NCBI GenBank assembly: GCA_945872355.1
Contig: CAMBZU010000004.1
Span: 3,609-67,608 of the forward strand
Direction of reading: 5' to 3'
Origin: Chitinophaga pinensis
GTDB lineage: Bacteria > Bacteroidota > Bacteroidia > UBA4408
Length of the DNA: 64,000 bases
In this document: one piece after another, positions 10,794-61,683 of the stretch
Position numbering within the stretch: the first letter of the stretch is position 1
Layout of the letters: each line of letters begins with the position of its first letter
Translations under genes and position numbers: made by a program
Notes under the pieces: generated by a model
The model's input: the letters and a program-made list of their open reading frames with translations, nothing else
What the model was told of the DNA's origin: nothing
Database searches by the model: none

Positions 10794-10920
10794 TATACCG
10801 ATGTGAAATAAGCAATGGCCCAAATTTTTTCACGGCATTTGTCCCAAACTTTTTTCCGATCGGCATTTACCAATGTATGATTTTAAATGATTGGCATAAT
10901 TTATAAATCACATTGGTATT
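10794..10920. mobile_element. MITE-like element, copy A (127 bp)
   Basis: Terminal inverted repeats ATACCGATGTGA / TCACATTGGTAT. Reverse complement of 61556-61683 with 8 substitutions and 1 gap by manual alignment. Confidence 0.85.
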
Positions 10921-10938
10921 ACATGCTAAATCAAAAAC

Positions 10939-10971
10939 AGCCCTTGCAGATTTTAAAAAACTTCAAGGGTT
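10939..10971. repeat. REP-like palindrome AGCCCTTG...TTTTAAAAAAC...CAAGGGTT
   Basis: Imperfect inverted repeat with a core like that at 10729-10757. Confidence 0.4.
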
Positions 10972-10978
10972 AAAAAAC

Positions 10979-11010
10979 AAAAAAGCCCCTAAAATTGAGA
11001 GGCTTTTTTT
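10979..11010 (-). terminator. Intrinsic terminator of tRNA-Glu/rpsT
   Basis: On the minus strand AAGCCTCT-CAATTTT-AGGGGCTT followed by a T tract, about 20 bp after the rpsT stop. Confidence 0.8.
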
Positions 11011-11028
11011 AAAATATTATTGAAATTA

Positions 11029-11283
11029 CTATGCTAAAGCAGTAACGTGCTTAGTCAATTTTGACTTAATATTACCTGCTTTGTTCTTATGAATTACATT
11101 TTTCTTAGCTAACTTATCAATCATTGAAATTACATCAATTAACTTGGTTTCAGCTTCTTTTTTATCAGCTAATGAACGAAGTGCTTTAATAGCATTACGC
11201 GTAGTTTTTGCGTAATAACGGTTATCAACACGTTTTGCATCGTTTGATCTGATTCTTTTAATTGCTGACTTATGATTAGCCAT
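11029..11283 (-). CDS. rpsT: 30S ribosomal protein S20
   Basis: MANHKSAIKRIR...IDKLAKKNVIHKNKAGNIKSKL. Confidence 0.97.
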   Translation of the reverse strand: MANHKSAIKRIRSNDAKRVDNRYYAKTTRNAIKALRSLADKKEAETKLIDVISMIDKLAKKNVIHKNKAGNIKSKLTKHVTALA

Positions 11284-11334
11284 TTTGTTTAGTTTTAATA
11301 ATAATTAATTCTTCTTCTTTACTCTTTAACTTCG

Positions 11335-11406
11335 TAGCCCGTAGGGGAATCGAACCCCTCTTACCAGGATGAAAACCTGGCGTCCTAACCCCTAGACGAA
11401 CGGGCC
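11335..11406 (-). tRNA. tRNA-Glu (TTC), CCA not encoded
   Basis: GGCCCGTTCGTCTAGGGGTTAGGACGCCAGGTTTTCATCCTGGTAAGAGGGGTTCGATTCCCCTACGGGCTA folds as a cloverleaf with anticodon stem CCAGG/CCTGG around TTC and T-loop GTTCGA. Confidence 0.97.
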
Positions 11407-11427
11407 TCGTTTTTTTGAAACGGAGCG

Positions 11428-11435
11428 CAAATGTA
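11428..11435 (-). promoter_or_regulatory. Bacteroidota sigma-A -7 box (TACATTTG) for tRNA-Glu/rpsT
   Basis: Exact TAnnTTTG match about 22 bp upstream of the tRNA. Confidence 0.75.
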
Positions 11436-11477
11436 AAACATTTTTCTGAAACACAAAAAATATTTTATCATTTATTG

Positions 11478-12173
11478 CTATTTTATTCCTTTTTCATCTT
11501 CAAACTGAAATTTAAACCCAAGCCTTTTACCTGTTTGAATGTTAATATTACTGGTAGATTCATTAATTTCCGAGACAGTTATTTCTTTTTGTGTTTCGTA
11601 GGGCGGTGTGTATAAATCAAATTCCAAGGTGGCTAAAATAATGGTTTGAAGCAAATTAAGGGCCTTTTCAGCCGTAAATTTTTCATTTCCAAAATCGTTA
11701 TGACCAATTGTAATTTTCCTGTTTTTACTTTCCACAAAATAATGTGTTTCCTTATTTACAAAAATTCGGCCCATTAAATAACCTACATCGTTTACGCGAT
11801 AATACTTAAAGCTATCCGCCAAAAAATTGTATACGCTAATCAATCCACAAAATGAGCGCATTTCGTTATGCAAAACATAGGGTGACTTTTTTATGTAATG
11901 CCCTCCATCAAACTCAAAAATATTTGTATGCATCTGAAAAACAAGTAAATCACCCGCAACTTTCAACTCAAACATAAATTCACTTCGATCATTAAATTCA
12001 ATTGCTACGCGTTTGTCAATAGCTAAAACTGCGCGCTTTAAATTATCAGCTTCAGTTTTTGCAATATCTTTTAGCATGCAGAACGCAGCTCGTGTTTCTT
12101 GAAAAATATCTTGCTTAACGCTAGATTTTTCTTTGATAACTTTGATGATTTGATCTTGCAAATTTTGATCCAT
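11478..12173 (-). CDS. Conserved hypothetical protein
   Basis: Long ORF 10 bp downstream of proS, with motifs GDLLVFQMHTNIFEF, YNFLADSFKY and TGKRLGF; start set at ATG 12173. Confidence 0.8.
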   Translation of the reverse strand: MDQNLQDQIIKVIKEKSSVKQDIFQETRAAFCMLKDIAKTEADNLKRAVLAIDKRVAIEFNDRSEFMFELKVAGDLLVFQMHTNIFEFDGGHYIKKSPYVLHNEMRSFCGLISVYNFLADSFKYYRVNDVGYLMGRIFVNKETHYFVESKNRKITIGHNDFGNEKFTAEKALNLLQTIILATLEFDLYTPPYETQKEITVSEINESTSNINIQTGKRLGFKFQFEDEKGIK

Positions 12174-12183
12174 GTCGGTTGAT

Positions 12184-13659
12184 TTAGTAAGCTTTTGCAA
12201 ATAAAACTCTTTGCGTAGAAGTCTTTCCAGAATAAATACATACGCCTTCTTCTAAGGGATTGTTCAGAGGAATACACCTAATTGTAGCTTTTGTTTCTTG
12301 TTTTATCAATTCTTCAGTTTCTGGTGTTCCATCCCAATGGGCCGAAATAAATCCGCCTTTATTTTCTAAAACATCTTTAAATTGGTCATAAGTTTCTACC
12401 TGATGAATCATACTATCTCTATATTTCAATGCTTTTTGGAACAAGCCATCTTGGATTTCAGTAAGTAAGCCAGCAATTTCCTGTGTTAAGCCTTCTTGTG
12501 GCACAGTATGCTTTTCTTTGGTATCTCTTCTGGCCAATTCCACCGTGCCATTTTCCATGTCTCTGCCACCAATAGCAATTCTAAGTGGTACACCTTTAAA
12601 TTCATAATCAGCAAATTTCCATCCTGGTCGCTGATTATCTCTATTGTCGTATTTAACCCTAATGTCCCTATCTTCTAATTCTTTTTTTAATTGATTTGCG
12701 TATGCATTTATTTTTTGCAATTGCTCATCATCTTTATAAATAGGCACTATAACCACTTGTATTGGCGCTAACTTTGGTGGCAGCACTAAACCTTGATTGT
12801 CAGAATGCGACATAATAAGCGCACCCATTAATCGTGTTGAAACGCCCCAAGAGGTAGCCCAAACATACTCCAACTTCCCTTCTTTAGAAGTAAATTTAAC
12901 ATCAAAAGCCTTTGCAAAGTTTTGTCCTAAAAAATGGGAAGTTCCTGCCTGTAAAGCCTTTCCATCTTGCATTAAAGCTTCGATACAATAGGTATCAAGC
13001 GCACCTGCAAATCTCTCATTGGCTGTTTTTTTACCTCTTATAACTGGCATGGCCATAAAGTTTTCAGCAAAATCTGCATATACATCCAACATTCTTTCTG
13101 TTTCTTCAATAGCTTCATCTGCTGTAGCGTGCGCTGTATGACCTTCTTGCCATAAAAACTCAGCCGTTCTTAAAAACAAACGTGTTCGCATTTCCCAACG
13201 CACCACATTGGCCCATTGATTAATTAACAAGGGTAAATCTCTGTAGGATTGAATCCAGCCTTTATAAGTATGCCAAATAATAGTTTCAGAAGTCGGTCGC
13301 ACGATCAATTCTTCTTCCAACTTAGCATCCTCATCAACCACAATGCCTTTGCCATCAGGCGAATTTTTAAGGCGATAATGTGTTACAACAGCACATTCTT
13401 TAGCAAAACCATCAACATGAGATGCTTCTTTACTAAAAAAAGATTTAGGTATAAATAAAGGAAAATAGGCGTTTACATGACCTGTTTGTTTAAACTTTTT
13501 ATCAAGTGCTTGTTGCATCATTTCCCAAATAGCATAACCATGCGGTTTTATTACCATGCAACCTCTAACTGCACTGTTTTCTGCAAGGTCAGCTTTGATA
13601 ACTAAATCGTTGTACCATTGCGAGTAATTCTCTTCCATTGTTGTGAAATCCTTAGCCAT
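12184..13659 (-). CDS. proS: Proline--tRNA ligase (eukaryote/archaeal type)
   Basis: [26 protein letters not shown] and [13 protein letters not shown] motifs, C-terminal FAKAY; 491 aa with no INS editing domain. Confidence 0.97.
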
Positions 13660-13771
13660 ATTTTTTTTGGTATAGTATTTGTAATTTTGTGATCGATCCC
13701 TTTTTCAGGGCTCAAAAATAAGATTAAACTTTTACCGAATCGAATTGTCTAACCAAATAAATTTAAAAGAC

Positions 13772-15661
13772 ATGAAAACACTCTTCTCAATTATAGCTAT
13801 TAGCAGTTTAGCACTTGCAAGTTGCAACACAGCTAAACAAACCAGCCGAAGTAATGATGATGACGTTTATTTTAACGCCAAAAACACGCCTCCAGCCAAC
13901 AACAGCAATAACAACAGTGGTAACAACAGCAATGCTGCTAACAATAAAACTTCACAAGGAAGCAGTGATTACACCCCTTCAGAAAATTCGGAAAATAACA
14001 ATTCTAATAGCGGAGGAAACTACGATTATACAAACCAAAATCAGTCAAGTAACACTTCAAGCCAATCGAGCAATGGTGATACCTATGTAACCAATAATTA
14101 TAATAATAACGATTTTGATTATGATAATTATTACGATTACGCTTACGCTTCTAGGATCAGGAGATTTCACTCAGTAAATAACTATTGGAATTATTATGAT
14201 CAATTTTATACCAATTCCTACTATTACAATTACAACCCTAATAGCTACGGTACAAGTATTTACATGGGATACAATTGGTGGGGCCCAGGTTATACTACTA
14301 CAGTAGTATATTCACCAAGTTGGGGTAATGGTTGGAACAATAATTATGGTTGGGGATGGGGATATAACCGCCCATGCTGGGGTTGGGGATATTCACCTGT
14401 ATACTCTTATGGATGGGGATATCCAACTTATGGCAACGCTTACGGATATGGAAATGCTTATGGATGGGGGCACCCATATAATGGTTGGGGATATAACAAT
14501 GGCTATTACAATGGATACAATAATGGCTATTATGATGGTTACAATGCAGGCATGAACAACGGAAACTATTATAATGGTTTTGATAGAAATACCTATTATT
14601 ATGGCCCAAGAACAACTGCAAGCACAACTGGAACAATTGGAAGAGGTTACAGGGGCAATTCGCTTTCACAAAGTTACGAAGAAGCCAATGGTATTGATCA
14701 TGCAAGAGGGATTGACAGAATTATAACTGCAAAAGATATAAACAGTAGTGCTGCCAAACCTGCCAATAACACTAACGGAACAGCTGCTAGACCCTTAGAA
14801 AACAATGCCAGCAAGCCAACATTTGACAGTCGCCCTAACAGTGCTAAAGATAATGCAACTAACACTTCTTATGACACTCGACCTGCAACTAGCAATACTG
14901 CCAAACCAGCAAATGGAAACATTGAAGCTAAACCTGTAAACTCAAACAATAGCAAGCCTTCTGGTACATTTGATAGCAGACCAGCAAATGAAAACCGCCC
15001 AGCTAACAACTATGATAGCAGACCTGCAAACGCAAATGAAAACCGTCCTGCTAATAACTTTGATAGCAGACCAGCAAATGAAAACCGTCCAGCTAACAAC
15101 TATGATAGCAGACCTGCAAACGCAAATGAAAATCGTCCAGCTAACAACTATGATAGCAGACCAGCTAATACTTATGAAAGTAGACCTGAAGTTCCTAGCA
15201 ACAGTAGACCTTCAAACAATTATGAAAGTAGGCCTGCAAGCCCTAGTGAAAACAGACCATCAAACAATAACAACAATTTTGATACTAGACCAAGCAACTC
15301 CCCTGCCCCATCAAACAGCAAACCAAGTTATGAAAGCAGACCTGCAAATCCAGGGACCAATTATAACAATAATCAAAATCGTCCAAGCTACGAATCAAGA
15401 CCAAATACACCATCAAAAAGTGAACCGAGCAATGTAACACCAAATAGAAACAGTGGTGGTTCTGGTTCTCAAAGAAACGATGCAGCTCCGTCGAAGGGAG
15501 GCAGTGGAAATAGTTACTCAAGACCTTCTAATTCGAGCCCATCATATAGCGCACCAAGCGGTGGTGGAAGAAGTTCAGGTGGAAGTTCAATAGGTGGAGG
15601 AAGTAAAAGTGGCGGTAGCAGCGGCAGTGGTGGCGGTAGAAGCAGTGGTGGTAGAAAATAA
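13772..15661 (+). CDS. Lipoprotein with long low-complexity N/Y/G/W, (D/E)SRPAN-repeat and S/G-rich regions
   Basis: Lipobox MKTLFSIIAISSLALASC, short motifs DDVYF and YASRIRRFH, then low-complexity sequence; divergent from proS and upstream of a FadL-like barrel. Confidence 0.85.
   Translation: MKTLFSIIAISSLALASCNTAKQTSRSNDDDVYFNAKNTPPANNSNNNSGNNSNAANNKTSQGSSDYTPSENSENNNSNSGGNYDYTNQNQSSNTSSQSSNGDTYVTNNYNNNDFDYDNYYDYAYASRIRRFHSVNNYWNYYDQFYTNSYYYNYNPNSYGTSIYMGYNWWGPGYTTTVVYSPSWGNGWNNNYGWGWGYNRPCWGWGYSPVYSYGWGYPTYGNAYGYGNAYGWGHPYNGWGYNNGYYNGYNNGYYDGYNAGMNNGNYYNGFDRNTYYYGPRTTASTTGTIGRGYRGNSLSQSYEEANGIDHARGIDRIITAKDINSSAAKPANNTNGTAARPLENNASKPTFDSRPNSAKDNATNTSYDTRPATSNTAKPANGNIEAKPVNSNNSKPSGTFDSRPANENRPANNYDSRPANANENRPANNFDSRPANENRPANNYDSRPANANENRPANNYDSRPANTYESRPEVPSNSRPSNNYESRPASPSENRPSNNNNNFDTRPSNSPAPSNSKPSYESRPANPGTNYNNNQNRPSYESRPNTPSKSEPSNVTPNRNSGGSGSQRNDAAPSKGGSGNSYSRPSNSSPSYSAPSGGGRSSGGSSIGGGSKSGGSSGSGGGRSSGGRK
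14971..15169 (+). repeat. In-frame 90-bp tandem duplication (42+48 bp subunits)
   Basis: TGATAGCAGACCAGCAAATGAAAACCG... begins at 14971 and 15061, with a partial third unit at 15151; encodes DSRPANENRPANNYDSRPANANENRPANNF/Y. Confidence 0.9.
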
Positions 15662-15703
15662 TTGCTGCTTTATTAACTTAAATTACTCATTAAAAATTAC
15701 AAA

Positions 15704-17167
15704 ATGAAAACATTTATTAGTGTAAGCTTTACCCTTACTGCATTGGTTTTAGGACTTTCTATAAATGCAATAGCACAAAATGAAGATGATGCACTAAGGT
15801 ATTCAAATACAAAATTTGGAGGAACGGCCAGGAGCACAGCAATGGCAGGTGCATTTGGCGCTTTGGGATCAGACTTTTCTTCCTTGAGTATAAATCCGGC
15901 CGGCATAGGCTTGTATAGAAAATCGGAGTTTACTTTTAGTCCTGCGGTTGGAGGAGCTGCAACTCAAACTAATTATTTTGGAGAAAGCTATAAGGATGAT
16001 AGATATCAATTTAATGTTTCCAACTTTGGGATAGTATTAGCTGGAACACAAGATTCAAAAAGCAACAATTGGAAAGGTTTTGGATTTGGATTTGGCTATA
16101 ATAGACTGGCTAATTTTAATAATAGGGCTATTGTTCAAGGCAACAATGCAACAAGCAGCCTAACTGATGTATATTTATCAGAAGCCAAAGCTTTAGACCC
16201 TTCAAACCTACCAGCGTTTGGCACCGATATGGCTTGGAGTACTTATTTGATTGATACTTTAAATGGCAATTACATTAGCGCTATGCCATCCAACATCAAT
16301 AAAACACAAAGAAAAACCATTGAAAAAAGAGGAGGAATGGGCGAAACTGTGATTGCACTTGGTGGTAATTACAACAACAAACTTTTTATGGGAGCCACTT
16401 TAGGTATCCAAAAAATACGTTATTGGGAAGAAAGTAATTATAGCGAAAGCCCCTTGAGTGACACTTTTGATATACAAGGTTTTTCAGTAAATAATTACCT
16501 AAACACCGATGGAACCGGAATGAATCTTAAATTAGGTGTAATATACATGCCAATGCCCTATGTTAGGATTGGTGCTGCATTTCATTCACCTACTTTTTTT
16601 AATATGCACGATAACTTTAGCACAGGCATGACCACTTCATTTAACGATGGAACAACAATTAATGCCGGTACTGATGCCAATGGAGGCGGAGATAAAGGGA
16701 ATTATGATTATAGATTTAACAGTCCGTTTCGTGCTGTGGGTTCTTTGGCATTTATTTTTGGGCAATATGGTTTAATAAGTGCAGATTATGAGTATGTTGA
16801 TTATAGAGAAGCGCGTTTTAGAGCTGTTGGCTATAGTTTTATTGACCAAAATAATACCATTAGAGATAAATACCAAGCAGTTGGAAACATCAGAGTAGGT
16901 TCAGAAATAAAATTAAACCCCTTTAGTATTAGATTTGGATATGCATTATATGCAAGTCCGTTCAAAGATAAATCTTTGATGAGCGATCAACAATTTTTTA
17001 CAGGAGGTTTTGGTTACAGACAAGATGGTTTTTTTGCAGATATCTCTTACATGAGAAGCATGTATAATGAGAAATATTATATTTATAACAGCTCTTTCAA
17101 CCCAACAGCTTCGGCAAATAAGTTAACAAGTGGAACTATCACAGCTACACTAGGAGTAAAATTTTAA
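15704..17167 (+). CDS. OmpP1/FadL family outer-membrane beta-barrel
   Basis: DALRYS...GTARSTAMAGAFGALGSD...INPAGIG (FadL-type NPA hatch motif), amphipathic strands, C-terminal F. Confidence 0.88.
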   Translation: MKTFISVSFTLTALVLGLSINAIAQNEDDALRYSNTKFGGTARSTAMAGAFGALGSDFSSLSINPAGIGLYRKSEFTFSPAVGGAATQTNYFGESYKDDRYQFNVSNFGIVLAGTQDSKSNNWKGFGFGFGYNRLANFNNRAIVQGNNATSSLTDVYLSEAKALDPSNLPAFGTDMAWSTYLIDTLNGNYISAMPSNINKTQRKTIEKRGGMGETVIALGGNYNNKLFMGATLGIQKIRYWEESNYSESPLSDTFDIQGFSVNNYLNTDGTGMNLKLGVIYMPMPYVRIGAAFHSPTFFNMHDNFSTGMTTSFNDGTTINAGTDANGGGDKGNYDYRFNSPFRAVGSLAFIFGQYGLISADYEYVDYREARFRAVGYSFIDQNNTIRDKYQAVGNIRVGSEIKLNPFSIRFGYALYASPFKDKSLMSDQQFFTGGFGYRQDGFFADISYMRSMYNEKYYIYNSSFNPTASANKLTSGTITATLGVKF

Positions 17168-24858: not shown

Positions 24859-25806
24859 TTATTTTTCGAAACTCTTCAGTTGTTTATCGATAATATTTAA
24901 TCCTTCTCTGAATGACTTTGGTTTATAGCCCAATTGATTAATTGCTTTATCCAAAACAAAACCAGTTCTTGGTGGCCTTTTTGCTGGTTGACTTAAGGTT
25001 GCTGAAGATACCACTTGAATAAGCCTTTTATCTAACTGCCAAAAATCAGCAATTTGATATACTAAATCTAAAATACTGTAGGTATCTCTACCGCTAATAT
25101 TAAAAACGCCCGAAGCCTTCTTATCGGCAATCAACATACAACCTTCAGCTAAATCTTCGGCCAAAGTAGGTGCTCTAAATTGATCGTTAATTACCTTTAT
25201 TTCTTCTCCTTTTTGCAATGCCGATTTTGCCCATAAAACAAGATTAGATCTACTCATATTGTCAACTACACCGTACACAATAATTGTTCTTACAATGGCC
25301 CAATTAATTGTACTTTCTTCCACTAACAAATCGGCCTTGTATTTTGAAAGTCCATAATAAGATATGGGATTAGGCTTATCGGTTTCAGTATAAGGGCCTG
25401 CTTCGCCATCAAAAACAAAATCGGTACTTAAATGAATAAAATGTGGGCGATAATTTTTTTCTGTGTGCTTCATTTTTTCTAATGCCCTCAATTGATAAGC
25501 AACTGCATCTACATTAATTACATCGCATGCTTTTCTTTCTTTTTCGCAATGATCAACATTTGTCATCGCTGCGGTATTAATAATTACATGTGGTTTTGTT
25601 TGGGCAAAAACCCTTTGAACTTCAGCCTCATTTGTAATATCCAATTCGAAATATTGGTAGCCTTTTTTAATTACCAGTCGGTTCTCACCTCTTGAAGTAG
25701 CAATAATTTGGTACTGTTTAGCACTTGTTAAATTTCTTTCGAGAAGCAAATAAACTAGCTTTTGGCCTAATAAACCATTGGTTCCTGTAATTAATATACG
25801 CTGCAT
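24859..25806 (-). CDS. dTDP-4-dehydrorhamnose reductase family (RmlD-like SDR)
   Basis: ITGTNGLLG, AAMTNVDHCE, HLSTDFVFDG, YGLSK and DQFRAPT motifs. Confidence 0.88.
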   Translation of the reverse strand: MQRILITGTNGLLGQKLVYLLLERNLTSAKQYQIIATSRGENRLVIKKGYQYFELDITNEAEVQRVFAQTKPHVIINTAAMTNVDHCEKERKACDVINVDAVAYQLRALEKMKHTEKNYRPHFIHLSTDFVFDGEAGPYTETDKPNPISYYGLSKYKADLLVEESTINWAIVRTIIVYGVVDNMSRSNLVLWAKSALQKGEEIKVINDQFRAPTLAEDLAEGCMLIADKKASGVFNISGRDTYSILDLVYQIADFWQLDKRLIQVVSSATLSQPAKRPPRTGFVLDKAINQLGYKPKSFREGLNIIDKQLKSFEK

Positions 25807-44486: not shown

Positions 44487-46811
44487 CTATTTCACTTTCA
44501 ACAACTTCTTAGCCATTTTACCTTCAATGGATAGCATAATTGATGGCAGTAACAATAAATTAGTAAACATGGCAATCAATAAAGTTAAGGATAACAATAT
44601 TCCTAAAGCTGCCGTACTTCCAAAATCTGAAAGCGAAAAAATAAAGAAGCCGGCAAATAAAATAATATTGGTATAAATCATACTTCTACCTGTCTCTAAA
44701 ATGGTGGCATGCACCGCTCCTGCATAGGTTTGTGTTCTACTTTGCAATTCCTGTCTAAATCTCGATAGAAAGTATATTGTACCATCGCTCGAAATACCAA
44801 AAGCAATACTAAAAATTAAAATGGTAGATGGCTTAAACCTTATCCCAAAATAACCCATTAAACCTGCTGTAATAATTAAGGGTATTAAACATGGAAGTTT
44901 ACTCAATAAAATTATCCTTAAGCTTCTAAACAAGGCTAGTCCAATTAAAATAATTAATAAAATTTCAACCGCTAAGCTTTCTAATAAATTAGCTAATAAA
45001 TAATCGTTCCCTTTTAAAAATATTAAACTATGCCCCGTAAAACTTACTTTGTAATCTGTACCTGCAAATACCGAGTCTGCTTTAGGCTGTATCTCCTTCA
45101 TTAAGGTTTTAATGCGCTCAGAGCCTACATCTGCCATCTGATAACTGATGCGCGTATATTGTCTGCTTCTATCTAAAAACAAATTAAAATTCGACATATT
45201 GCTTTTAATAGGTAAACTATAATCCGATAGTTTTTTCAATTCTGTAAAGCCAGGCAAAATATAATATTTAGGATTTCCATCTTTATAAAACTGATATGAA
45301 AACTTTATGGCTTCGGCCAATGACAATGGTTTAGAAAACTCAGGATACTTGGCTATTTTCTTTTGCAGTGCATTTATTTTGTACAAAGCCTTAGCGTTAT
45401 CAGCAAACACACCATTGGGTTTCTTTGTATCTATTAAAATCTCAAATGGTAAAACCCCATTAAAGTTTTTTTCAAAAAAACGCAAATCATCATATACTTT
45501 GTCCTTTTGCGGAAAATCATCAACCACAAAACCCAACACTGAAATTTTAAACATTCCTATGATTGAAACCACGGTAACAATACCAATGGTAAAATAAACA
45601 GCTTTTCTTCTGTTACTTACTAAATATATAATGTAGTCTAACATTTTATTAACTCGCTTGCCTTCCAAATGCTTAGTATGTTTCATTTTTGGCGGAGATA
45701 AGTAGCTCAAAACAATAGGTATTAATATCAGCGTAATTCCAAAAGTAATCATCACATTAATTCCTGAAACTACACCAAACTCAACCAAAAGCGCACTATT
45801 GGTAAAATAGAGCACTGCAAAACCAATAGCTGTTGTTAAATTTGCTAAAAACAGGGTAATACCCATGGTGTTTATCATACGCGCCAAAGCCTTGGTTTTA
45901 TTCCTATGACGCGCATATTCTGCATGATATTTATTGATAAAAAATATACAATTTGGCACGCCAATAATTAAGATTAATGGCGGCACAAGCGCTGATAAAA
46001 CCGTTATTTTATAATTCAATAACTCAATGGTTCCTACCGACCAAATTACGCCAATAACAACTACTAAAAGCGATACAAAAACTGACGACATGGAACGAAA
46101 AAACACCCACAAAATCAAAAACATAAGCACCAAAGCCACGCCTAAAAATAATAACATTTCCCTTGATACTTTCTGCATAAAAACTGTTCTTATATAAGGC
46201 ATTCCGCTCAAATGCACATCAGTACCATGCTTTGCCGAATATGCCAAAGCCATCTTCTTAATTTCATTTACAATTTCTATCCGGTTTTTTGAATTAATTT
46301 CTGATTGCGAAAAGGTAACTGCCATTATATGTGAATCTGTTTCCTTGTTTAAAACAAATCCATCATAAAATGGCAATGAATCTAATGATAGTCGAACCCG
46401 ATTTAACTGCTCCTGGGTTTCGGGCAAATGGGTTAAAAAAGGAACAAACATTATTTTATGCAAAGAATCATCAAAGGCTACCTTGCTCACATTCGTAATT
46501 GCAATAACATTCTCAACACCTTTTATCTTTTTAATATCAAGCGATAAATTATGCCAATCATTAAATTTATTTATTGTAAAGAAATTTTTGTCTTGAACAC
46601 CAATAGCCATAATGTTGCCATCCTGCCCAAACAAATCTTTAAAATTATTGTACTCAGTATAAGCACTGTCGGTATTGGGTAATATTTTAGGAAACTCATA
46701 CGAAAGCTCAATTTTAGAAGCGTGATAGCCCATAAAAGCAGTTAGCATAGCTAATACAACAATAAAGGCAATACGATTTCTGAGTATTTTACGTGCAATA
46801 AATGGCCACAT
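44487..46811 (-). CDS. MMPL/RND family transporter
   Basis: Two repeats of TM + soluble loop + 5 TM; SGMPYIR, NLTTAIGF and AFGISSDGTIYFL motifs. Confidence 0.9.
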   Translation of the reverse strand: MWPFIARKILRNRIAFIVVLAMLTAFMGYHASKIELSYEFPKILPNTDSAYTEYNNFKDLFGQDGNIMAIGVQDKNFFTINKFNDWHNLSLDIKKIKGVENVIAITNVSKVAFDDSLHKIMFVPFLTHLPETQEQLNRVRLSLDSLPFYDGFVLNKETDSHIMAVTFSQSEINSKNRIEIVNEIKKMALAYSAKHGTDVHLSGMPYIRTVFMQKVSREMLLFLGVALVLMFLILWVFFRSMSSVFVSLLVVVIGVIWSVGTIELLNYKITVLSALVPPLILIIGVPNCIFFINKYHAEYARHRNKTKALARMINTMGITLFLANLTTAIGFAVLYFTNSALLVEFGVVSGINVMITFGITLILIPIVLSYLSPPKMKHTKHLEGKRVNKMLDYIIYLVSNRRKAVYFTIGIVTVVSIIGMFKISVLGFVVDDFPQKDKVYDDLRFFEKNFNGVLPFEILIDTKKPNGVFADNAKALYKINALQKKIAKYPEFSKPLSLAEAIKFSYQFYKDGNPKYYILPGFTELKKLSDYSLPIKSNMSNFNLFLDRSRQYTRISYQMADVGSERIKTLMKEIQPKADSVFAGTDYKVSFTGHSLIFLKGNDYLLANLLESLAVEILLIILIGLALFRSLRIILLSKLPCLIPLIITAGLMGYFGIRFKPSTILIFSIAFGISSDGTIYFLSRFRQELQSRTQTYAGAVHATILETGRSMIYTNIILFAGFFIFSLSDFGSTAALGILLSLTLLIAMFTNLLLLPSIMLSIEGKMAKKLLKVK

Positions 46812-55512: not shown

Positions 55513-55522
55513 AGCTTAATTC

Positions 55523-55777
55523 TTAAACAACAACAGGTAAGTTTACAGCCTCAACTGCTTTTATTTCTTTAACTGCTCTTTTAACCGTTTCTTCAACGCC
55601 CGCTTTCATAGTCATCATGCTCATGTTACAAGTGCTACAACTTCCGTGAAGCTTCACTCTTGCTACAAAATCATCAGTTACATCCACCAGTGAAACATCG
55701 CCTCCATCTGCTTCTAAAAATGGTCTAATTTGTTTTAAAGCCTCCTCTATTCTTTGATATAAATCGCTGTTCAACAT
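55523..55777 (-). CDS. NifU/NfuA C-terminal domain protein
   Basis: IRPFLEADGGDV...GSCSTC..S.MTMKAGVE. Confidence 0.93.
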   Translation of the reverse strand: MLNSDLYQRIEEALKQIRPFLEADGGDVSLVDVTDDFVARVKLHGSCSTCNMSMMTMKAGVEETVKRAVKEIKAVEAVNLPVVV

Positions 55778-55900
55778 TGTTTTTTGGTATAATTAAAGGC
55801 GAAATTAATAAAGTTAATTGAATGTGAAAATATTAGTGCAAAATGAAGCCACTTGACCTGAATAAAGTTGAAGCATAAACAAGCACCAATTGATGAAATA

Positions 55901-56027
55901 ATACCAATTACACTTTCAATTTAGTCCAATTGCGGCATTACCATATGGTACTAATTTCAAGTAGTATCGGCATTAACCATTGCATATTTATTTTTTAGTT
56001 GGCCTAAAAAATAAATGCAATTGGTAT
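55901..56027. mobile_element. MITE-like element, diverged copy C (127 bp)
   Basis: TIR ATACCAATTACAC / ATGCAATTGGTAT; ATCGGCATT.ACCA at nearly the same offset as in copy A; perfect 13-bp hairpin with TTGGC loop. Confidence 0.7.
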
Positions 56028-56140
56028 AATATGATTAAAAGTATATTCCCACCCTGCAAATGTTTTAATACATTGTTCCTTAAGAACCTAGATGCTATGC
56101 TGCACAACCAGACCAGGATGTACCCAAATTAAAATTTTTA

Positions 56141-56782
56141 TTACTTTTTTCTGCAAATCATCAGCCCATCTCTTAATGGCAGCAAAAAAGGTTCTACGCG
56201 TTCGTCATTAAACATCAATTCATTATAAGCATGCATAGCTATAGTATCAGCATCTTTCTTAACTGAATCATCAACAACCTTTCCACTCCATAATACATTA
56301 TCTGCAATAATATAACCGCCACTAATTACTTTATCGAAAACCATTTCATAATACAAGGCATAGTTTTTTTTATCGGCATCAATAAAAACCAAATCAAATT
56401 TTTCATTTATAGTGGGAATAATTGTTTGCGCATTTCCATTTATATAATGGAGTTGTGACGCTTTTTCCGACAAGGCAAAATACTGCTTGACTTTATCTGC
56501 TAATTCTTCATTTACATCAATTGTAATAAGCTTTCCATTGTTTGTTAAACCTTCTGCCAAACAAAGTGCAGCATAGCCTGTAAAAGTGCCTATCTCTAAA
56601 ATACAATTTGGCCTAATCATTTTGCTAATCATCGCTAAAAATCGGCCTTGTAAATGTCCCGATAACATGCGTGGCATCAATACCTCCAAATGTGTTTCTC
56701 TATTCACCTTTTGTAAAAGTGGGCTTTCCTTTTCACTGTGGAGCTCACAATATTTTTCTATTTCATGGTTAACAATGTGCAT
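56141..56782 (-). CDS. O-methyltransferase (caffeoyl-CoA/TrmR-like family 3)
   Basis: MLSGHLQG, LEIGTFTGY, FIDADK, ADNVLWSG and LRDGL motifs; start set at ATG 56782. Confidence 0.92.
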   Translation of the reverse strand: MHIVNHEIEKYCELHSEKESPLLQKVNRETHLEVLMPRMLSGHLQGRFLAMISKMIRPNCILEIGTFTGYAALCLAEGLTNNGKLITIDVNEELADKVKQYFALSEKASQLHYINGNAQTIIPTINEKFDLVFIDADKKNYALYYEMVFDKVISGGYIIADNVLWSGKVVDDSVKKDADTIAMHAYNELMFNDERVEPFLLPLRDGLMICRKK

Positions 56783-56783
56783 G

Positions 56784-58007
56784 CTATTCAAATGTTAATG
56801 AATTCATATACTTTTCTTCAAAAACTTCATTTGCAATATTGTAAAGTTGCTTGTTTGTTATCTTTTCTATTTCTTCATATATGGAGCTCAAAGTATCTAC
56901 CTTATTAAACATTAAAAGACTTTTTCCTAAAGCCAACATTACACTGCTGTTGTTTTCTTGTGCAAGCGAAATATTGCCACAAAGTTGCCGCTTTGCGCTG
57001 TGCAACTGCATTGAACTCAAAGGTGTTTCTCTTAACTTTTTCAGCTCTTTATAAACCAAGGCGGTGGTTTTTTGCAAGTACTTTTTATCTGTTCCTAAAT
57101 ATACTGCAAAAAGACCTGTATCGCTATATGCTACGTAGTTAGAGTCTAAATTATAAGCAAACCCATACTTCTCTCGGATATTTAAATTTAACCTGCTATT
57201 CATGCCCGGCCCACCTAATAAATTGTTGAGCAAAACCATAGCTGTTCTTTTTTTTGAACCTGCCGAAGGTGCCAAACTACCAATAATACAATGCGATTGA
57301 TTTGAATTTACTTTACTTACGATATGAAAATTTTTATTCGTTGTTGGCGCCCTTCTAAGCAATGGATTGCCCTTGGTAGTATAAATTGCAAAGTGTTTTT
57401 CCATCACTTTTTTTACATACTCTTTTTTGTAATTGCCTACAATGCTAAAAACCATATTCTTAATTAAATAATGCCTTTTTATGAAATCAATGATATGCTT
57501 TTGCTTAAAACTTTTCACACTCTCAACGGTACCCAAAATATTGTTTCCTAAAGGATGTTTGGTATAAAGATGGGTTTCAAAATCATCATAAATTTGTTCT
57601 GCTGGTGTATCTTTATAAGAGTGTATCTCATCAATAATAACATCCTTTTCTTTTTCAATTTCCTTTATTGGAAAAGTGGAGTTAAAAGTAATATCAGCAA
57701 TAAGCTCCACAGCTCGCTCTAAATATTGCTTTTGAAAAGAGGCATAAATACAGGTTTCTTCCTTAGATGTATATGCGTTTAACTCACCTCCTACACTATC
57801 TATTCTACCTAAAATATGATAAAACCTTCGCTTCGAAGTACCTTTAAACAAAGTGTGCTCAATATAGTGTGCTAACCCTTGTTCTGTTTGCTTTTCTTCG
57901 CGCGTTCCTGCATTTAAAATAATACCACAATGTGCAGCTTCGCCTACAACTTGCTTATAAATAACACGCAAACCGTTCGGCAATTCAAAAATATCAAATT
58001 CATTCAT
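56784..58007 (-). CDS. M16 family peptidase (pitrilysin/insulinase)
   Basis: HYIEH inverted zinc motif, NAYTSKEET, HPLG and SRL...IREKYG motifs. Confidence 0.93.
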   Translation of the reverse strand: MNEFDIFELPNGLRVIYKQVVGEAAHCGIILNAGTREEKQTEQGLAHYIEHTLFKGTSKRRFYHILGRIDSVGGELNAYTSKEETCIYASFQKQYLERAVELIADITFNSTFPIKEIEKEKDVIIDEIHSYKDTPAEQIYDDFETHLYTKHPLGNNILGTVESVKSFKQKHIIDFIKRHYLIKNMVFSIVGNYKKEYVKKVMEKHFAIYTTKGNPLLRRAPTTNKNFHIVSKVNSNQSHCIIGSLAPSAGSKKRTAMVLLNNLLGGPGMNSRLNLNIREKYGFAYNLDSNYVAYSDTGLFAVYLGTDKKYLQKTTALVYKELKKLRETPLSSMQLHSAKRQLCGNISLAQENNSSVMLALGKSLLMFNKVDTLSSIYEEIEKITNKQLYNIANEVFEEKYMNSLTFE

Positions 58008-58019
58008 AAAGTCTTTTCC

Positions 58020-58514
58020 TTACTGTTTTGTGGGAATTAAATCGGCAATAGCTACCCCTATCGATTGGTTTATTGTTTCTGTAATTCTACCAATTTCTAT
58101 CCCCTTTTGAAGGATGATAAAAACTGGTGTGTTGTTTATACTATAACTATTTTCTATGCCTTGTGGCGATCTTTTATCCCTGTCTAAAAAACATAAAGTT
58201 ATACGTTGTTTGCTTATGCCAGCCAAATCTATCACCTTGTAAAACTGTGGGAGCAACTGTTGACTTTTCTCACACCAAGTTCCTGCAAACACAATAAATT
58301 GTATGTCCTTGGACATTTCTTTTATGGCATTAATTGCCGAAATATTGAGCTGATAATTAAAATAGCCATCCTTATACCATCTAAAACTTAAACTTCGCTC
58401 CAATATCCTTACATCAGAAATACCTACAATTACGTTTTGCTCAGTATTTACTGAAGTTTGTGATAAGCCAATTTCACTCAAAAAAAGAAAAAACAATAAA
58501 AATTTGTAATGCAT
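58020..58514 (-). CDS. Exported thioredoxin-like protein (CxxS)
   Basis: Signal-like N-terminus from ATG 58514; FAGTWCEKS, TPVFI and EIGRI motifs. Confidence 0.75.
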   Translation of the reverse strand: MHYKFLLFFLFLSEIGLSQTSVNTEQNVIVGISDVRILERSLSFRWYKDGYFNYQLNISAINAIKEMSKDIQFIVFAGTWCEKSQQLLPQFYKVIDLAGISKQRITLCFLDRDKRSPQGIENSYSINNTPVFIILQKGIEIGRITETINQSIGVAIADLIPTKQ

Positions 58515-58673
58515 TGCAATCTTTTTAAGGAAGTTAAGTTCTTGTAATTTTAAACTGCAATAAAAGTACACAGCAATTCAACAACTGCCAATTTTAATTG
58601 TTGTGAATGGTAATTATATGTAAAACAGCTTGTTAAAAAAGGTTAAGCAAACACAGTAGTAACAAGGCTTATA

Positions 58674-58681
58674 TAACTTTG
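58674..58681 (+). promoter_or_regulatory. -7 promoter box (TAACTTTG) for the two-component operon
   Basis: TAnnTTTG match about 30 bp upstream of the GTG start. Confidence 0.6.
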
Positions 58682-58712
58682 ATTAAGTTTAGTGCATTAA
58701 ACAAATATTCGA

Positions 58713-60305
58713 GTGAATAATAAAAGAATTTTATTAGCAATTGTTGTTATCCTACTTGCCATTGGAGGCTTAATTGCTTTTCAATTGTATTGGATTAAAA
58801 GTGCAGTTGAAATTAAACAAGAAAGGTTCGACGCTGGGGTAAGTGAAGCGTTGCAAAAAGTAGCTTATAACCTCCAAAAAAAGGCAGTAGCTGCTAAAGT
58901 AACACGCAGACTTAACATGCACCGCCAATCTGAACGAGATGATCATTTATCTGAAAATAAAATATCCTTCAAAAAAAGAAAAAACAACTACAAAGACATG
59001 CGTTTAAATGTGTTTGAAGAAATAATAACTGATAGCGGCGGTGTTCAAACCAAAAAACAAAGTACTAAAACTTATAAAAGCAATGCGCTTAATCACCCCG
59101 ATTTTAAAATAAATGTCGATTTAAAAAAGAAAGAACCTTTTTCGGTAAACCAAAAAGAAGGCGGCAACAAAAGCCTAAGCTGGTTTTTAAATCAACAAGA
59201 CATGATGAACGATATTTTTGATGAGTTGGTAAGCATCAATATTTACAACGATTACAGCAATAAGATTGATACTGTTGCACTAGATAGCATGGTTAGGAGT
59301 GAACTAAAACAACAAGGTATTGATACAAAATATGAATATGGCATTTTAAATCAAAATCAAAATGCCTTTGTTTTCCCTGTTAAAGCACAATTAATTTCCA
59401 CACTCTTAAAATCACCATACCGAATTAGCCTTACTGCACAAAATATTTTTATCAACCCAAGGTACTTAAGTTTACATTTTCCCTCACAACAAAACTATAT
59501 CTTACGTAATCTATGGTATATGTTACTTGGGTCAGCTTTCTTAATTCTATTAATTATTTGGATGTTTTCATATACAATTGCTACTATATTTAAACAGAAA
59601 AAACTTTCTGATATTAAAAATGACTTCATTAATAACATGACGCATGAGTTTAAAACTCCAATTTCTACAATTTCTCTGGCTTGCGAAGTGCTAGGTGATA
59701 ATACTGTGGAAAAAAGTCCCCAAAAATTGGGTAATTACGTTAAGGTTATTAAAGATGAAAACAAAAGACTTGGGCTTTTGGTCGAAAATGTTTTACAAAC
59801 AGCTGTTTTAGATAAAGGTGAACTTAAATTGAAACTAAAGTCACTTGATGTTCACGAAATTATTGAAGATGTGCTCAACAACAGCTATGTGCAAATTGAA
59901 AATAAAAAAGCAGAAATAGAAATTGAATTTGACGCCATTGAATCAGTTTTAAGCGCCGACAAAGTGCATCTTTCAAACATTATTTATAACTTGCTTGATA
60001 ACGCTTTAAAATATGCTACTAACGATCCATTAATCACAATTTTTACTAAAAGCGATAATAAAGGAGTATATATTGGCGTTAAGGACAATGGAATGGGCAT
60101 CAGTAAAGAAAATCAAAAAAGAATTTTCGATAAGCTTTATCGCGTTCCAACAGGTAACATTCACAATGTAAAAGGTTTTGGATTAGGGTTAAGTTATGTT
60201 AAAGCAATTATAGAAAAGCATGGTGGCAGCATTTTTGTAGAGAGTAGCCTCGGTGTTGGAAGCACATTCACTTGCTTCTTCCCTTATAAACAAATAGAAA
60301 AATAA
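58713..60305 (+). CDS. Sensor histidine kinase (RprX-like)
   Basis: Two TMs, DFINNMTHEFKTP (H box), NLLDNALKY, DNGMG and GFGLGL motifs. Confidence 0.92.
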   Translation: MNNKRILLAIVVILLAIGGLIAFQLYWIKSAVEIKQERFDAGVSEALQKVAYNLQKKAVAAKVTRRLNMHRQSERDDHLSENKISFKKRKNNYKDMRLNVFEEIITDSGGVQTKKQSTKTYKSNALNHPDFKINVDLKKKEPFSVNQKEGGNKSLSWFLNQQDMMNDIFDELVSINIYNDYSNKIDTVALDSMVRSELKQQGIDTKYEYGILNQNQNAFVFPVKAQLISTLLKSPYRISLTAQNIFINPRYLSLHFPSQQNYILRNLWYMLLGSAFLILLIIWMFSYTIATIFKQKKLSDIKNDFINNMTHEFKTPISTISLACEVLGDNTVEKSPQKLGNYVKVIKDENKRLGLLVENVLQTAVLDKGELKLKLKSLDVHEIIEDVLNNSYVQIENKKAEIEIEFDAIESVLSADKVHLSNIIYNLLDNALKYATNDPLITIFTKSDNKGVYIGVKDNGMGISKENQKRIFDKLYRVPTGNIHNVKGFGLGLSYVKAIIEKHGGSIFVESSLGVGSTFTCFFPYKQIEK

Positions 60306-60323
60306 TATTTAAAATAAAGACAT

Positions 60324-61034
60324 ATGACAAAAGATTTCAAACCCAAAGTGTTATTAGTTGAAGATGATCCTAATTTAGGAAATCTATTGCTCGAATATCT
60401 GCAGGCTAAAGAGTATAATACAACACTTGCCACCAATGGTAAAGAAGGCCTTACGCAATTCAAAAACAATGTATATGATGTATGCATATTTGATGTAATG
60501 ATGCCAATTATGGATGGTTTTACCTTAGCGCGTGAAGTTAGAAAATTAGATGCCGAAACACCTATAGTTTTCCTCACTGCAAAATCAATGAAAGAAGATA
60601 CCATTGAAGGCTTTAATGCGGGTGGCGATGATTATTTAACCAAGCCATTTAGCATGGAAGAATTACTTCTTCGCCTAAAAGCTATTTTAAGAAGAACTAA
60701 AAACCAAACACTAACCAATAGCGATCAAAATAATTTTGAAGTAGGCGATTACAAGTTCGATTTTAACTTGCAAAAATTAGAAGTTGGAGGCAAGGCGCAA
60801 AAGTTAACCACGCGTGAAGCAGAACTCTTAAAATTACTTTGCATTAATGTAAATGATGTATTAGATAGAACCTTTGCTTTAAAATCTATTTGGCACGATG
60901 ATAACTACTTTAACGGTCGTAGTATGGATGTTTACATAGCCAAACTGCGCAAGTATTTAAGAGAAGATCCAAATTTAGAAATTGTAAATGTACATGGTAA
61001 AGGATTTAAACTTTTAGTTAAAAATACGCTTTAA
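60324..61034 (+). CDS. rprY: OmpR family response regulator RprY
   Basis: LLVEDDPNLG.LL.EYLQAK, FDVMMP.MDGFTLA, FLTAK, YFNGRSMDVYIAKLRK and NVHGKGF resemble Bacteroides RprY as I recall it. Confidence 0.8.
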   Translation: MTKDFKPKVLLVEDDPNLGNLLLEYLQAKEYNTTLATNGKEGLTQFKNNVYDVCIFDVMMPIMDGFTLAREVRKLDAETPIVFLTAKSMKEDTIEGFNAGGDDYLTKPFSMEELLLRLKAILRRTKNQTLTNSDQNNFEVGDYKFDFNLQKLEVGGKAQKLTTREAELLKLLCINVNDVLDRTFALKSIWHDDNYFNGRSMDVYIAKLRKYLREDPNLEIVNVHGKGFKLLVKNTL

Positions 61035-61053
61035 AATAAGTTTTCCTAAAATG

Positions 61054-61089
61054 AAAGCCTGAATATATTTAATTATTCAGGCTTTTTTT
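61054..61089 (+). terminator. Intrinsic terminator of the two-component operon
   Basis: AAAGCCTGAATA...TATTCAGGCTTTTTTT. Confidence 0.85.
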
Positions 61090-61371
61090 GTTGTTAATTA
61101 TATTGTAATTTCTTAGTACTAGAAACATACTTGTAAGGATTTAAGAGCTTACCATTTATCCAACTCAACTTTATTGCAAACCCGCTCCTGCAGCGCACCC
61201 ATAAGTTTAAACGTGATTGCCAGGGCAGCGCCCGAAGCACCGCGAAGCTGCATCAACACAAAAAGTAAACACGCGTTGATAATCTGCTTATAGGATAGGT
61301 GCTAGCTTTAAGCAAATTGCTTCGCCTTTGGTTTGCAATTAAGTCTTTTCTCAAGCAGTATTCTGTTGCTA

Positions 61372-61534
61372 ATACCAAATGCAAATATGTTTTAGGCCAA
61401 CGATTTAATTAATAAAATTTTTGAGATTGAGGCGGATATTGCAGGCATAGCAAGCAGCTAATCTCAAAATAGACAACGTAACTATCAAGAATTTTATCTT
61501 AAAGATTGGACAACAATGTATTTGCTTTTAGTAT
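61372..61534. mobile_element. MITE-like element, long copy D (163 bp)
   Basis: TIR ATACCAAATGCAAATA / TATTTGCTTTTAGTAT (14 of 16 complementary); first 30 nt match the reverse complement of copy C at 26 positions. Confidence 0.65.
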
Positions 61535-61555
61535 AATATACATCCGCCATCCTTT

Positions 61556-61683
61556 TATACCAATGTGATTTATAAATTATGCCAATAATTTAAAATCTTA
61601 TATTGGTAAATGCCGATCGGAAAAAAGTTTGGGACAAATGAAGTGAAACAAATTTGGTCCATTACTTATTTCACATCGGTATA
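61556..61683. mobile_element. MITE-like element, copy B (128 bp, TA-flanked)
   Basis: TATACCAATGTGA...TCACATCGGTATA; inverted near-identical copy of 10794-10920. Confidence 0.85.

Follow-up and report, generated by a model that had tools for sequence, protein, structure and literature searches.

Intergenic elements of a Chitinophaga pinensis genome are MITEs with a three-base TWA target duplication and a likely IS630-family partner

Introduction

What kind of element are the four ATAC...GTAT intergenic sequences of the window, i.e. the whole stretch of 64,000 nucleotides of Chitinophaga pinensis DNA analysed here, and which enzyme serves them? The first-pass annotation had read them as an ERIC-like non-autonomous family or, alternatively, as recombination or processing sites, with a bipartite motif (ATAC-N21-CCAA) at all eight ends and an enzyme encoded elsewhere.

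Materials and methods

The genome of the window (G000, 3.40 Mb) was compared with those of a sister species (G001) and of G002, all three belonging to the same genus, and with further genomes. Matches to ATAC-N21-CCAA in the window were compared with 100 dinucleotide shuffles, and the genome search with three Markov simulations. Two facing motifs at most 400 bp apart were counted as a convergent pair. For the transposase model NF033545 a cut-off of 100 bits was used. Unless otherwise stated, positions within ends are counted from TAC (T = position 1).

Four MITE copies in the window

The four window elements are MITEs, being short, non-coding and multicopy, with inverted ends, target duplication and an empty site:

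10796..10918, plus strand: MITE copy A, subtype A, 123 bp, TACCGAT end first; flanks TTA 10793-10795 and TTA 10919-10921
55902..56026, minus strand: MITE copy C, subtype C, 125 bp; flanks TAA 55899-55901 and TAA 56027-56029
61373..61533, plus strand: MITE copy D, subtype D, 161 bp; flanks TAA 61370-61372 and TAA 61534-61536
61558..61681, minus strand: MITE copy B, subtype A, 124 bp, inverted relative to A; unequal flanks TTA 61555-61557 and TAA 61682-61684

Copy A (G000:C4:14403-14527) is 96% identical to the subtype A reference and has the same two-hairpin fold as copy B; at its orthologous locus the intergenic DNA has diverged and gives no clean empty site. Folding yielded z-scores of -4.7 and -5.6 for the two strands of copy B and, as single-stranded DNA, of -4.2 and -5.2 for those of copy C. 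Subtype D is rare (2 full copies in the genome), and the right tip of copy D, TACTAAAA, is the tip of the resident IS630-family element. On the side of copy B, about 45 bp present in G001 are absent from the window. In three lake metagenome runs, contigs stack about 150-300-fold exactly over copy B, with loose ends at 61553-61557 and 61682-61684; joints skipping D or B were not seen in these runs, which is not evidence of absence. One RNA run gave no contig coverage of 61088-61758, which likewise is not evidence of absence.

End motif

Within the window ATAC-N21-CCAA occurs 12 times and is thus commoner than in shuffled DNA (mean 2.62, largest 7; 0/100 shuffles reach 12). Eight matches are the element ends (A 10795/10919, C 55901/56027, D 61372/61534, B 61557/61682), which confirms the motif at all eight, and the 29-nt ends quoted in the first-pass annotation agree letter by letter with the window sequence. 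The remaining four (15863-15891, 25136-25164, 45859-45887 and 58762-58790) have no partner and look like chance occurrences. The proposed scan of the genome gave 420 single motifs vs 119-136 in the simulations, and 67 convergent pairs vs 0, 0 and 1, with pair lengths peaking at 126 (n=26), 127 (n=10) and 129 bp (n=5).

A gap-free alignment of the eight window ends with four IS ends revealed T1, A2, C3, A11, C25, C26, A27 and A28 as invariant. Positions 8-16 are common to both ends of an element and different between subtypes, as had been noticed. The CCAA, described as invariant, is so in all eight window ends; beyond the window it is a consensus only, being found at positions 25-28 in 101 of 118 ends of the genome when copies were chosen by their tips alone, and in 60 of 94 ends of four other genomes (hand count of printed strings). 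The ATAC...GTAT boundaries also need adjustment: the motif stands, but the element proper is TAC...GTA, and the outer A/T is part of the duplicated TWA target.

Structure and spread of the MITE family

The 3.4-Mb genome contains 166 loci, 84 of them full-length. Full family size is about 126-129 bp (window copies 123-161 bp), a length held across orders, and an element's ends match each other over about 17-28 nt. Overlap with a long ORF was found in only 1/84 copies. A MITE consists of two hairpins in tandem; each hairpin includes an additional inverted copy of the end and has CCAA at its loop. Stem changes are compensatory in 10 of 22 pairs, the stems covary across lineages, and the 14 distinct types of hairpin-1 arms all fold. 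Copies are over-represented in gaps between convergent genes (23/77 vs 17% of the intergenic length) and under-represented between divergent ones (8/77 vs 24%).

The family is widespread in Bacteroidota MAGs. Between species, MITE copies are 98% identical vs 74-87% for the flanking genes, which points to recent horizontal spread in lake communities. No Rfam family was detected on the elements (a window scan at the gathering threshold gave one tRNA only, and an E-value scan of the D/B locus nothing on the elements), and there was no meaningful match in plasmid or phage collections. Neither a description of the family nor an IS630 member with TWA duplication was found in the literature searched, which included term searches of the reviews PMC10969869 and PMC3184786; the bulk MITE catalogue of PMC11602168 may contain the family in its supplements.

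Target site duplication and mobility

Identical 3-bp flanks were found in 63 of the 84 full copies (38 TAA, 25 TTA); the other 21 have unequal flanks. The middle base of the flanks matches in 69/84 copies vs 50% expected (p about 1e-9) and is independent of orientation (subtype A 18 A / 23 T; subtype C 10 A / 9 T), which excludes a TA duplication with one extra base. Nested insertions (C64:15564-15817) split known sequence at one TTA, which is then present twice, and mini-elements consisting of ends only (one of 31 bp, several of 50 bp) still have TWA flanks. At the locus of copy D, where the window reads TAA-D-TAA, G001 has the empty site GTTGC-TAA-TATAC with a single TAA, and site occupancy differs between the sister species at orthologous loci.

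Insertion is therefore at TWA with a 3-bp TTA/TAA duplication, as opposed to the 2-bp TA typical of IS630/Tc1-mariner elements; partitions based on TA are excluded by the empty sites together with the orientation test. The check for empty sites and TA duplication proposed in the first-pass annotation yielded one orthologous empty site and a TWA in place of a TA duplication. Target duplications, nested insertions and the empty site bear out the ERIC-like non-autonomous family in the form of MITEs, and the alternative of recombination or processing sites found no support.

IS630-family partner

The window contains no transposase. The partner search, for which IS630/mariner had been named first among the candidate types, led to an IS630-family IS that occurs in this genome and genus and whose ends have the same tip and box, in agreement with the expected enzyme encoded elsewhere. 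In a two-ORF IS of G002 (contig C270), the models NF033545 and DDE_3 (PF13358) give ORF2 123.2 and 87.4 bits, respectively, ORF1 matches HTH_33/32/29, and the ends are TACTAAAGTGAAATAATAAATAGACCAA and TACTAAAATGAATTATATACCAGACCAA. This IS is present at 97-100% identity in the window's genome, where its left ends close four contigs (flanks TAA, TTA, TAA, TGA) and its right ends open two (TAA, TTA). IS DNA is present in 3/8 genomes of the genus (G000, G001 and G002), the same three that have subtype A copies 90-100% identical to copy B.

A complete relative of 1162 bp in G001 (contig C12) reads TAA, TACCATTATGAATAAATAAATAGTCCAA...TTGGACTATTTTATAAATCACTTTGGTA, TAA; its right end matches that of subtype A at 24 of 28 positions. 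Of its insertion site only the right flank has a G000 orthologue, with TTA at the matching place, and the left flank is unaligned. Matching TWA flanks were found in 9/10 full IS copies examined, including all 8 copies of G287 (6 TAA, 2 TTA), the exception being G253 (TTA vs TAA). In G045, which belongs to another family, an IS630-family element has the end TACCGATTTGGTATCTGTTC, 19/20 identical to that of G045's own MITE, and the flank TTA. Two ORFs share the transposase between them in G001 and G002, and their -1 frame relation and an A6G run suggest possible programmed frameshifting; fused homologues of 322-375 aa exist, and for three the source gives the name 'IS630 family transposase' or 'transposase'.

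Since tip and box are common to the MITEs and the IS630-family IS, the bipartite motif is the terminal inverted repeat of this lineage. With the same tip, box and spacing, this IS is the likely source of the transposase for the MITEs.

Several observations speak against this partnership. In an even sample of the class, the strict paired motif was found in 10/401 genomes and a transposase relative in 9/401, with both only in G000. The tips differ, with TACTAAA in the resident G000 IS and TACCRAT in subtypes A and C, which are the abundant ones; only in G001 was an IS with a TACC tip seen. The G000 IS copies are known from their ends alone, their interior being unassembled, and an intact gene in that genome is only putative. 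In five MITE-bearing genomes NF033545 exceeded the cut-off only in G045, with stop codons; there was a weak 21-bit match below the cut-off in G005 and none in G115, G151 and G321. DDE_3 had no match in the complete genomes G041 and G042, each with dozens of MITE copies. The split transposase of G001 and G002 and the unequal flanks of the G253 copy and of 21 MITE copies also count on this side, and no IS copy gave a clean empty site.

Long members enclosing an ORF, suggested as a further place to look, were not found in the window's genome (four chance-looking pairs), the fetched loci or two complete genomes; the apparent cases L156 and L095 proved to be ordinary genes with a separate MITE on either side. 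ISAzo13 (PF07592) was sought without success in five genomes of the genus, the control genomes likewise giving no match, all rve-type elements were IS3-family with TG ends, and IS1595 was present only in G042. Recurrent ORFs beside foreign MITE copies contained no transposase-like cluster.

Alternative explanations

The TWA duplication itself invites comparison with Tourist-like MITEs mobilised by a transposase of the IS5 group or of PIF/Harbinger type (DDE_Tnp_4 / DDE_Tnp_1), since a 3-bp TTA/TAA duplication is the hallmark of PIF/Harbinger. Related IS5 subgroups have the same 3-bp duplication. Bacteroidota do carry elements of the ISL2, IS1031 and IS427 groups (PMC3196728, Table 2). Against such an origin, the resident IS5-like and IS982-like elements have unrelated ends, gagaccactgcaaaactcc and ACCTGAGTTCGATTAATAA; PF13359 finds only that IS5-like element (G000, G002) and nothing in G001, G004, G005, G007, G041 and G042, PF13586 gave nothing over the cut-off in G000, G002, G005, G041 and G042, and PF01609 was not found in G042. 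The actual ends are borne by the IS630-family element and no IS5-type transposase bounded by them was found in these genomes, so we regard this origin as very improbable. Spread of REP/REPIN-like hairpins by a single-strand HUH transposase (Y1, RAYT-type) that recognises hairpins and CCAA loops would fit the long hairpin with CCAA at its loop in each half, the covarying stems and the 10 Y1_Tnp matches in the genome. HUH transposition is not expected to yield target duplications, however, and 3-bp duplications and empty sites are present; moreover, the repeats that flank the RAYT-like genes are different, G+C-rich ones, and deletion derivatives reduced to the tips, without a hairpin, are still TWA-flanked. 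We regard this explanation, too, as very improbable.

The elements could also be structured intergenic signals kept by the host (e.g. transcript-end hairpins or protein-binding sites), either besides mobility or now instead of it where a transposase is absent. Such a role would explain the conserved length, compensated stems and conserved loops; the folding of all arm types, the enrichment between convergent and depletion between divergent genes and the MITE-rich genomes without a detectable transposase also speak for it. On the other hand, there is no Rfam match, occupancy varies between sister species, and purifying selection against promoter insertions gives the same 3'-end bias. Template-switch correction of palindromes can keep the arms matched without selection. 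Altogether, we judge a host signal to be unlikely, if less so than the two other transposase types.

Proposed mechanism

The most probable reading, which we hold with good confidence, is a MITE family of a Bacteroidota IS630-family (Tc1/mariner superfamily) lineage with two-part 28-bp ends, moved by the IS transposase in trans and duplicating TWA. The MITEs are mobile, duplicate TWA and have the end architecture of IS630-family elements in the same genomes; their movement by the IS630-family transposase is what we infer from these sequences. The elements would be short, non-coding cut-and-paste DNA transposons whose 28-bp terminal inverted repeats combine two functions. Cutting and joining by the DDE transposase is predicted at the tip, which reads TACCRAT or, in subtype D and the resident IS, TACTAAA; its N-terminal helix-turn-helix domains are predicted to bind the box (positions 21-28, consensus TAGTCCAA), two helical turns further in. 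IS copies of about 1.16 kb with the same ends would supply the transposase in trans, and insertion at TWA would duplicate all three bases. A tip domain with an inner binding domain had been suggested before; the same tip and box are found on the IS ends, and this division of labour is assigned by analogy with ISY100, Tc1 and Tc3. The inner hairpin arms, i.e. the extra inverted end copies, may aid transposition or persist by palindrome correction.

More tentatively, and with somewhat less than even confidence, we propose a Bacteroidota-wide branch of IS630/Tc1-mariner in which the 2-bp TA cut, nearly universal in the superfamily, has become a 3-bp TWA stagger and which has double-hairpin MITEs with compensated stems and the box at the loop. 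The latter arrangement is a hint that recognition of the ends may involve extruded hairpins or cruciforms and not duplex DNA alone.

Comparison with known systems

TA-specific integration is known above all from Tc1/mariner/IS630 elements, its textbook case, which are also in wide use as genetic tools; a naturally occurring lineage staggered by 3 bp at TWA, if true, would be a ready comparison for target DNA bending and cutting. The repeat family that fragments freshwater Bacteroidota MAG assemblies (IS and MITEs both lie at contig ends in G000) receives a name and a source enzyme, and the recurrence of the end motif across orders of Bacteroidota would thereby be explained.

REP/REPIN-RAYT systems also comprise abundant intergenic hairpins, and RAYT-like genes occur in the genome, but the present elements differ by target duplication, DDE-type ends and the absence of a RAYT association. 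Tourist and mPing have a 3-bp TTA/TAA duplication and an A+T-rich target. Tourist-like MITEs (mPing, mPIF) and the IS5 group share both with our family, whose ends are those of an IS630 transposase element, not of DDE_Tnp_4 or IS5. ERIC elements are described in PMC3184786 as enterobacterial, intergenic, about 127 bp long, with terminal inverted repeats, often at gene 3' ends and TA-flanked. Size, intergenic location, terminal inverted repeats and gene 3' ends agree, whereas by that description the enterobacterial host and TA flanks set ERIC apart from a Bacteroidota family with TWA flanks; ERIC is an analogy only.

The closest agreement is with IS630/Tc1-mariner: the transposase matches NF033545 and Pfam DDE_3 and has N-terminal HTH domains, the IS is short and simple (about 1.16 kb) with a target centred on T..A, and non-coding derivatives far outnumber it. 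RUP of Streptococcus pneumoniae with IS630-Spn1 is a comparable IS630-MITE pair. The terminal repeats of about 28 bp compare with 24 bp in ISY100, where, according to PMC2170065, the repeat is fully footprinted and bound by two HTH motifs and an AT hook, and ends of about 24-30 bp suffice. Differences are the TAC tips, the MITEs built as two tandem hairpins with extra inverted end copies, and the 3-bp TTA/TAA duplication. The last is unusual because the studied members of IS630/Tc1-mariner duplicate the dinucleotide TA (PMC2170065), and the compensated hairpins are likewise unusual.

End motif and frequency of the repeat family

In the window, the motif ATAC-N21-CCAA was found 12 times against 2.6 expected, a number reached by none of 100 shuffles. 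The first-pass annotation had proposed that all eight ends of four elements share this motif, and all eight were recovered among the window matches, accounting for 8 of the 12:

10795-10919, MITE copy A (subtype A)
55901-56027, MITE copy C (subtype C)
61372-61534, MITE copy D (subtype D)
61557-61682, MITE copy B (subtype A)

In the 3.40-Mb genome, single motifs numbered 420 versus 119-136 in three Markov simulations, and convergent pairs at most 400 bp apart numbered 67 versus 0, 0 and 1, with pair lengths peaking at 126, 127 and 129 bp. The excess over shuffles in the window and over simulations in the genome shows that the paired-motif repeat family is real.

The fixed place of CCAA held largely, but not without exception. 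Among copies of this genome selected by their tips only, it was in place at 101 of 118 ends, and in four other genomes, G005, G017, G041 and G042, at 60 of 94 ends (hand count). Ends lacking it mostly had single-base variants, 1-base shifts or flipped loops. When 50 distinct end types are compared, the commonest bases of the inner block are T21 (82%), A22 (82%), G23 (66%) and T24 (62%), followed by C (86%), C (84%), A (86%) and A (88%); T21 and A22 lie outside every selection pattern used to pick ends. In some G005 copies, e.g. C1:33066-33196 and C121:9795-9925, the hairpin-1 loop is inverted, with TTGG at 25-28 in place of the expected CCAA, as if the loop had flipped inside the palindrome.

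Element boundaries and target duplication

Five representative copies matched 166 loci of the genome (blastn), of which 84 are full-length, non-overlapping copies:

subtype A, 49 copies (including A and B of the window)
subtype C, 22 copies
subtype C', 8 copies
117-bp type, 3 copies
subtype D, 2 copies

A T stands three bases before TAC in 81 of the 84 copies and an A three bases after GTA in 82. The middle flank base, A or T, agrees between the two sides in 69 copies (p ~1e-9 versus 50%); the triplets are fully identical in 63 (38 TAA, 25 TTA). When copies are read in element orientation, A and T are about equally common at this position (18/23 in subtype A, 10/9 in subtype C), which rules out that only TA is duplicated next to an invariant added base. 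Nested insertions serve as empty sites within the genome: at C64:15564-15817 a subtype A copy is split by a subtype C copy, and a TTA that occurs once in uninterrupted A now stands on both sides. A 31-bp remnant of just the two tips sits within a C copy with TTA on either side, and single-hairpin 50-bp elements also have TWA (TTA or TAA) at both sides. The comparison of orthologous loci, which the first-pass annotation had suggested checking for empty sites and TA duplication, yielded a between-species empty site for D, GTTGC-TAA-TATAC in the sister species G001 versus GTTGC-TAA-[D]-TAA-TATAC in the window, although with TWA rather than TA duplicated. Flanks, nested insertions and empty site together establish TWA as the duplicated target and TAC...GTA as the element proper. 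The flanks of copy B are unequal (TTA/TAA), and some 45 bp that lie beside it in G001 are absent from the window.

An IS630-family insertion sequence with the same ends

A likely source of the enzyme presumed to be encoded elsewhere came from a DDE_3 search, which led to an IS at the start of contig C270 of G002, a genome of the same genus. Its first ORF carries HTH_33/32/29 and its second DDE_3 (87.4 bits); against the IS630-family model NF033545 (cut-off 100 bits), ORF1 reaches 56.8 and ORF2 123.2 bits. From the coordinates, we calculated that ORF2 lies in the -1 frame relative to ORF1; fused homologues have 322-375 aa. The ends of this IS carry the motif, tta|TACTAAAGTGAAATAATAAATAGACCAA and TACTAAAATGAATTATATACCAGACCAA|taa. 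Contigs of the genome that contains the window have the same IS (97-100% identity) at their ends; its interior is unassembled there, which is why the transposase escaped notice at first. The junctions in this genome are:

left junctions, flanks TAA, TTA, TAA and TGA
right junctions, flanks TAA and TTA

A subtype C MITE contains one of the right junctions. Among eight genomes of the genus, DNA of this IS was found only in the window's genome, G001 and G002, whose subtype A copies show the highest similarity.

A complete diverged relative of 1162 bp in G001 (C12; 1531-2692 of the fetched locus L204; flanks TAA/TAA) has the ends TACCATTATGAATAAATAAATAGTCCAA and TACCAAAGTGATTTATAAAATAGTCCAA, the latter sharing 24 of 28 positions with the right end of subtype A; comparison of its flanks with the window's genome yielded no empty site for an IS copy. 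Transposase relatives (ORF2 46-72% identical) occur in 9 of 401 class genomes. TWA flanks match in nine of ten full IS copies, including all eight in G287 (6 TAA, 2 TTA), while a copy in G253 has TTA versus TAA. In G045, an IS630-family element (142 bits, internal stop codons; flank TTA) shares 19 of 20 end bases with that genome's own MITE. Outside the genus and G045, MITEs and transposase mostly did not occur together in the samples searched, and the tips of the resident IS differ from those of the abundant MITE subtypes. Of the IS5/Harbinger-type, IS982, IS3, IS1595 and RAYT-like genes considered as partner, none examined carries MITE ends. An IS630-family transposase would move the MITEs in trans through a cut-and-paste mechanism.

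Predicted folding and stem covariation

As single strands, subtypes A and C are predicted to form two adjacent hairpins (z -4.2 to -5.6), and D to fold end to end (z -3.6). In the predicted hairpin 1, the inner ATTGGTA pairs with the tip TACCAAT, and AATGCCGAT, a conserved motif of the interior, forms the inner arm pairing with the opposite tip; the inner arms are additional inverted copies of the tip. In both hairpins, CCAA occupies the junction of stem and loop, 25-28 nt from each tip. Hairpin 2 shows compensating double changes in 10 of 22 pairs (RNAalifold, 14 elements from different MAGs); for hairpin 1, all 14 distinct arm types fold, and most of positions 8-23 show 2-4 kinds of Watson-Crick pair. 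The kept complementarity could reflect an aid to transposition, host use or palindrome correction.

Genomic context and spread

Only 1 of the 84 copies overlaps a long ORF. The 77 classifiable copies lie between tandem (46), convergent (23) and divergent genes (8), compared with intergenic length shares of 58%, 17% and 24%. A scan of the window and the D/B locus found no Rfam match to the elements. G+C-rich terminator-like hairpins followed by T runs directly adjoin A and B, which therefore sit just outside apparent transcript ends:

10727-10757, 10938-10978 and 10985-11010, hairpins beside A
61695-61730, hairpin beside B
11335-11406, minus strand, tRNA gene

Beyond this genome, subtype A occurs in five of seven genomes of the genus and in a second genus of the family; matches in one further family are weak. 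Public Bacteroidota MAGs from several orders contain at least 113 stretches with the paired motif, which was also found in 10 of 401 evenly sampled class genomes (one of them, G118, flagged unpublished), with none for the reversed control. In three lake metagenome runs, the depth of copy B was ~150-300x that of its flanks, and contigs diverge exactly at its ends. Subtype A copies of G001 and G002 reach 98% identity to B, versus 74-87% for flanking orthologous DNA, and occupancy at orthologous loci differs between these genomes and the window. This sequence comparison suggests that the IS/MITE pair has recently spread horizontally among lake Bacteroidota. In G002, the locus orthologous to D/B (C174:120472-122590) has B-like and D-like copies in opposite order, ~270 bp apart, which points to independent insertions or rearrangement within the same intergenic region.

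Other mobile elements

An unrelated second MITE family (~145-175 bp, ends CCCAGATTACGCA...TTTGGG) is nested in copies of the first and has ~38 related matches at contig ends. The genome also has ten Y1_Tnp matches (IS200/RAYT-like, several broken), which form groups, every group with its own flanking G+C-rich hairpin repeat, e.g. cacctgagcgtagtttccgaactacgctc; they make up REP/RAYT-style systems of a Bacteroidota genome. At C42:29044-29618, an IS5-like element of DUF772 type with the end gagaccactgcaaaactccaac directly adjoins part of the IS630-family transposase gene described above, which looks like one IS inserted into another. Positions outside the window are:

C39:12117-12390 and C32:9224-9532, second MITE family, 5-bp duplications ATTAT and TTGAA
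C89:9050-9394, C14:28279, C1:133067, C71:17473, C117:408, C8:27898, C2:30763, C3:24459, C28:6723 and C91:1730, Y1_Tnp matches
C47 (1017-2080 of the fetched locus L009), IS982-like element, 299-aa DDE_Tnp_1, ends ACCTGAGTTCGATTAATAA, 5-bp duplication TATTA, with a subtype A MITE 40 bp away

Comparison with known IS630 members

No description of the family or of a TWA-duplicating IS630 member was found in the literature searched or by term search of reviews. According to the ISY100 study (PMC2170065), two HTH motifs and an AT hook bind the 24-bp repeat of that element, and ends of 30 bp are enough. On this model, the 28-bp end described here may consist of a cleavage tip and, after a 13-bp spacer, a box (CCAA/TAGTC) bound by the paired HTH domain. 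ISY100 and the studied IS630 members covered there duplicate TA, whereas the MITEs and the IS described here duplicate three bases.
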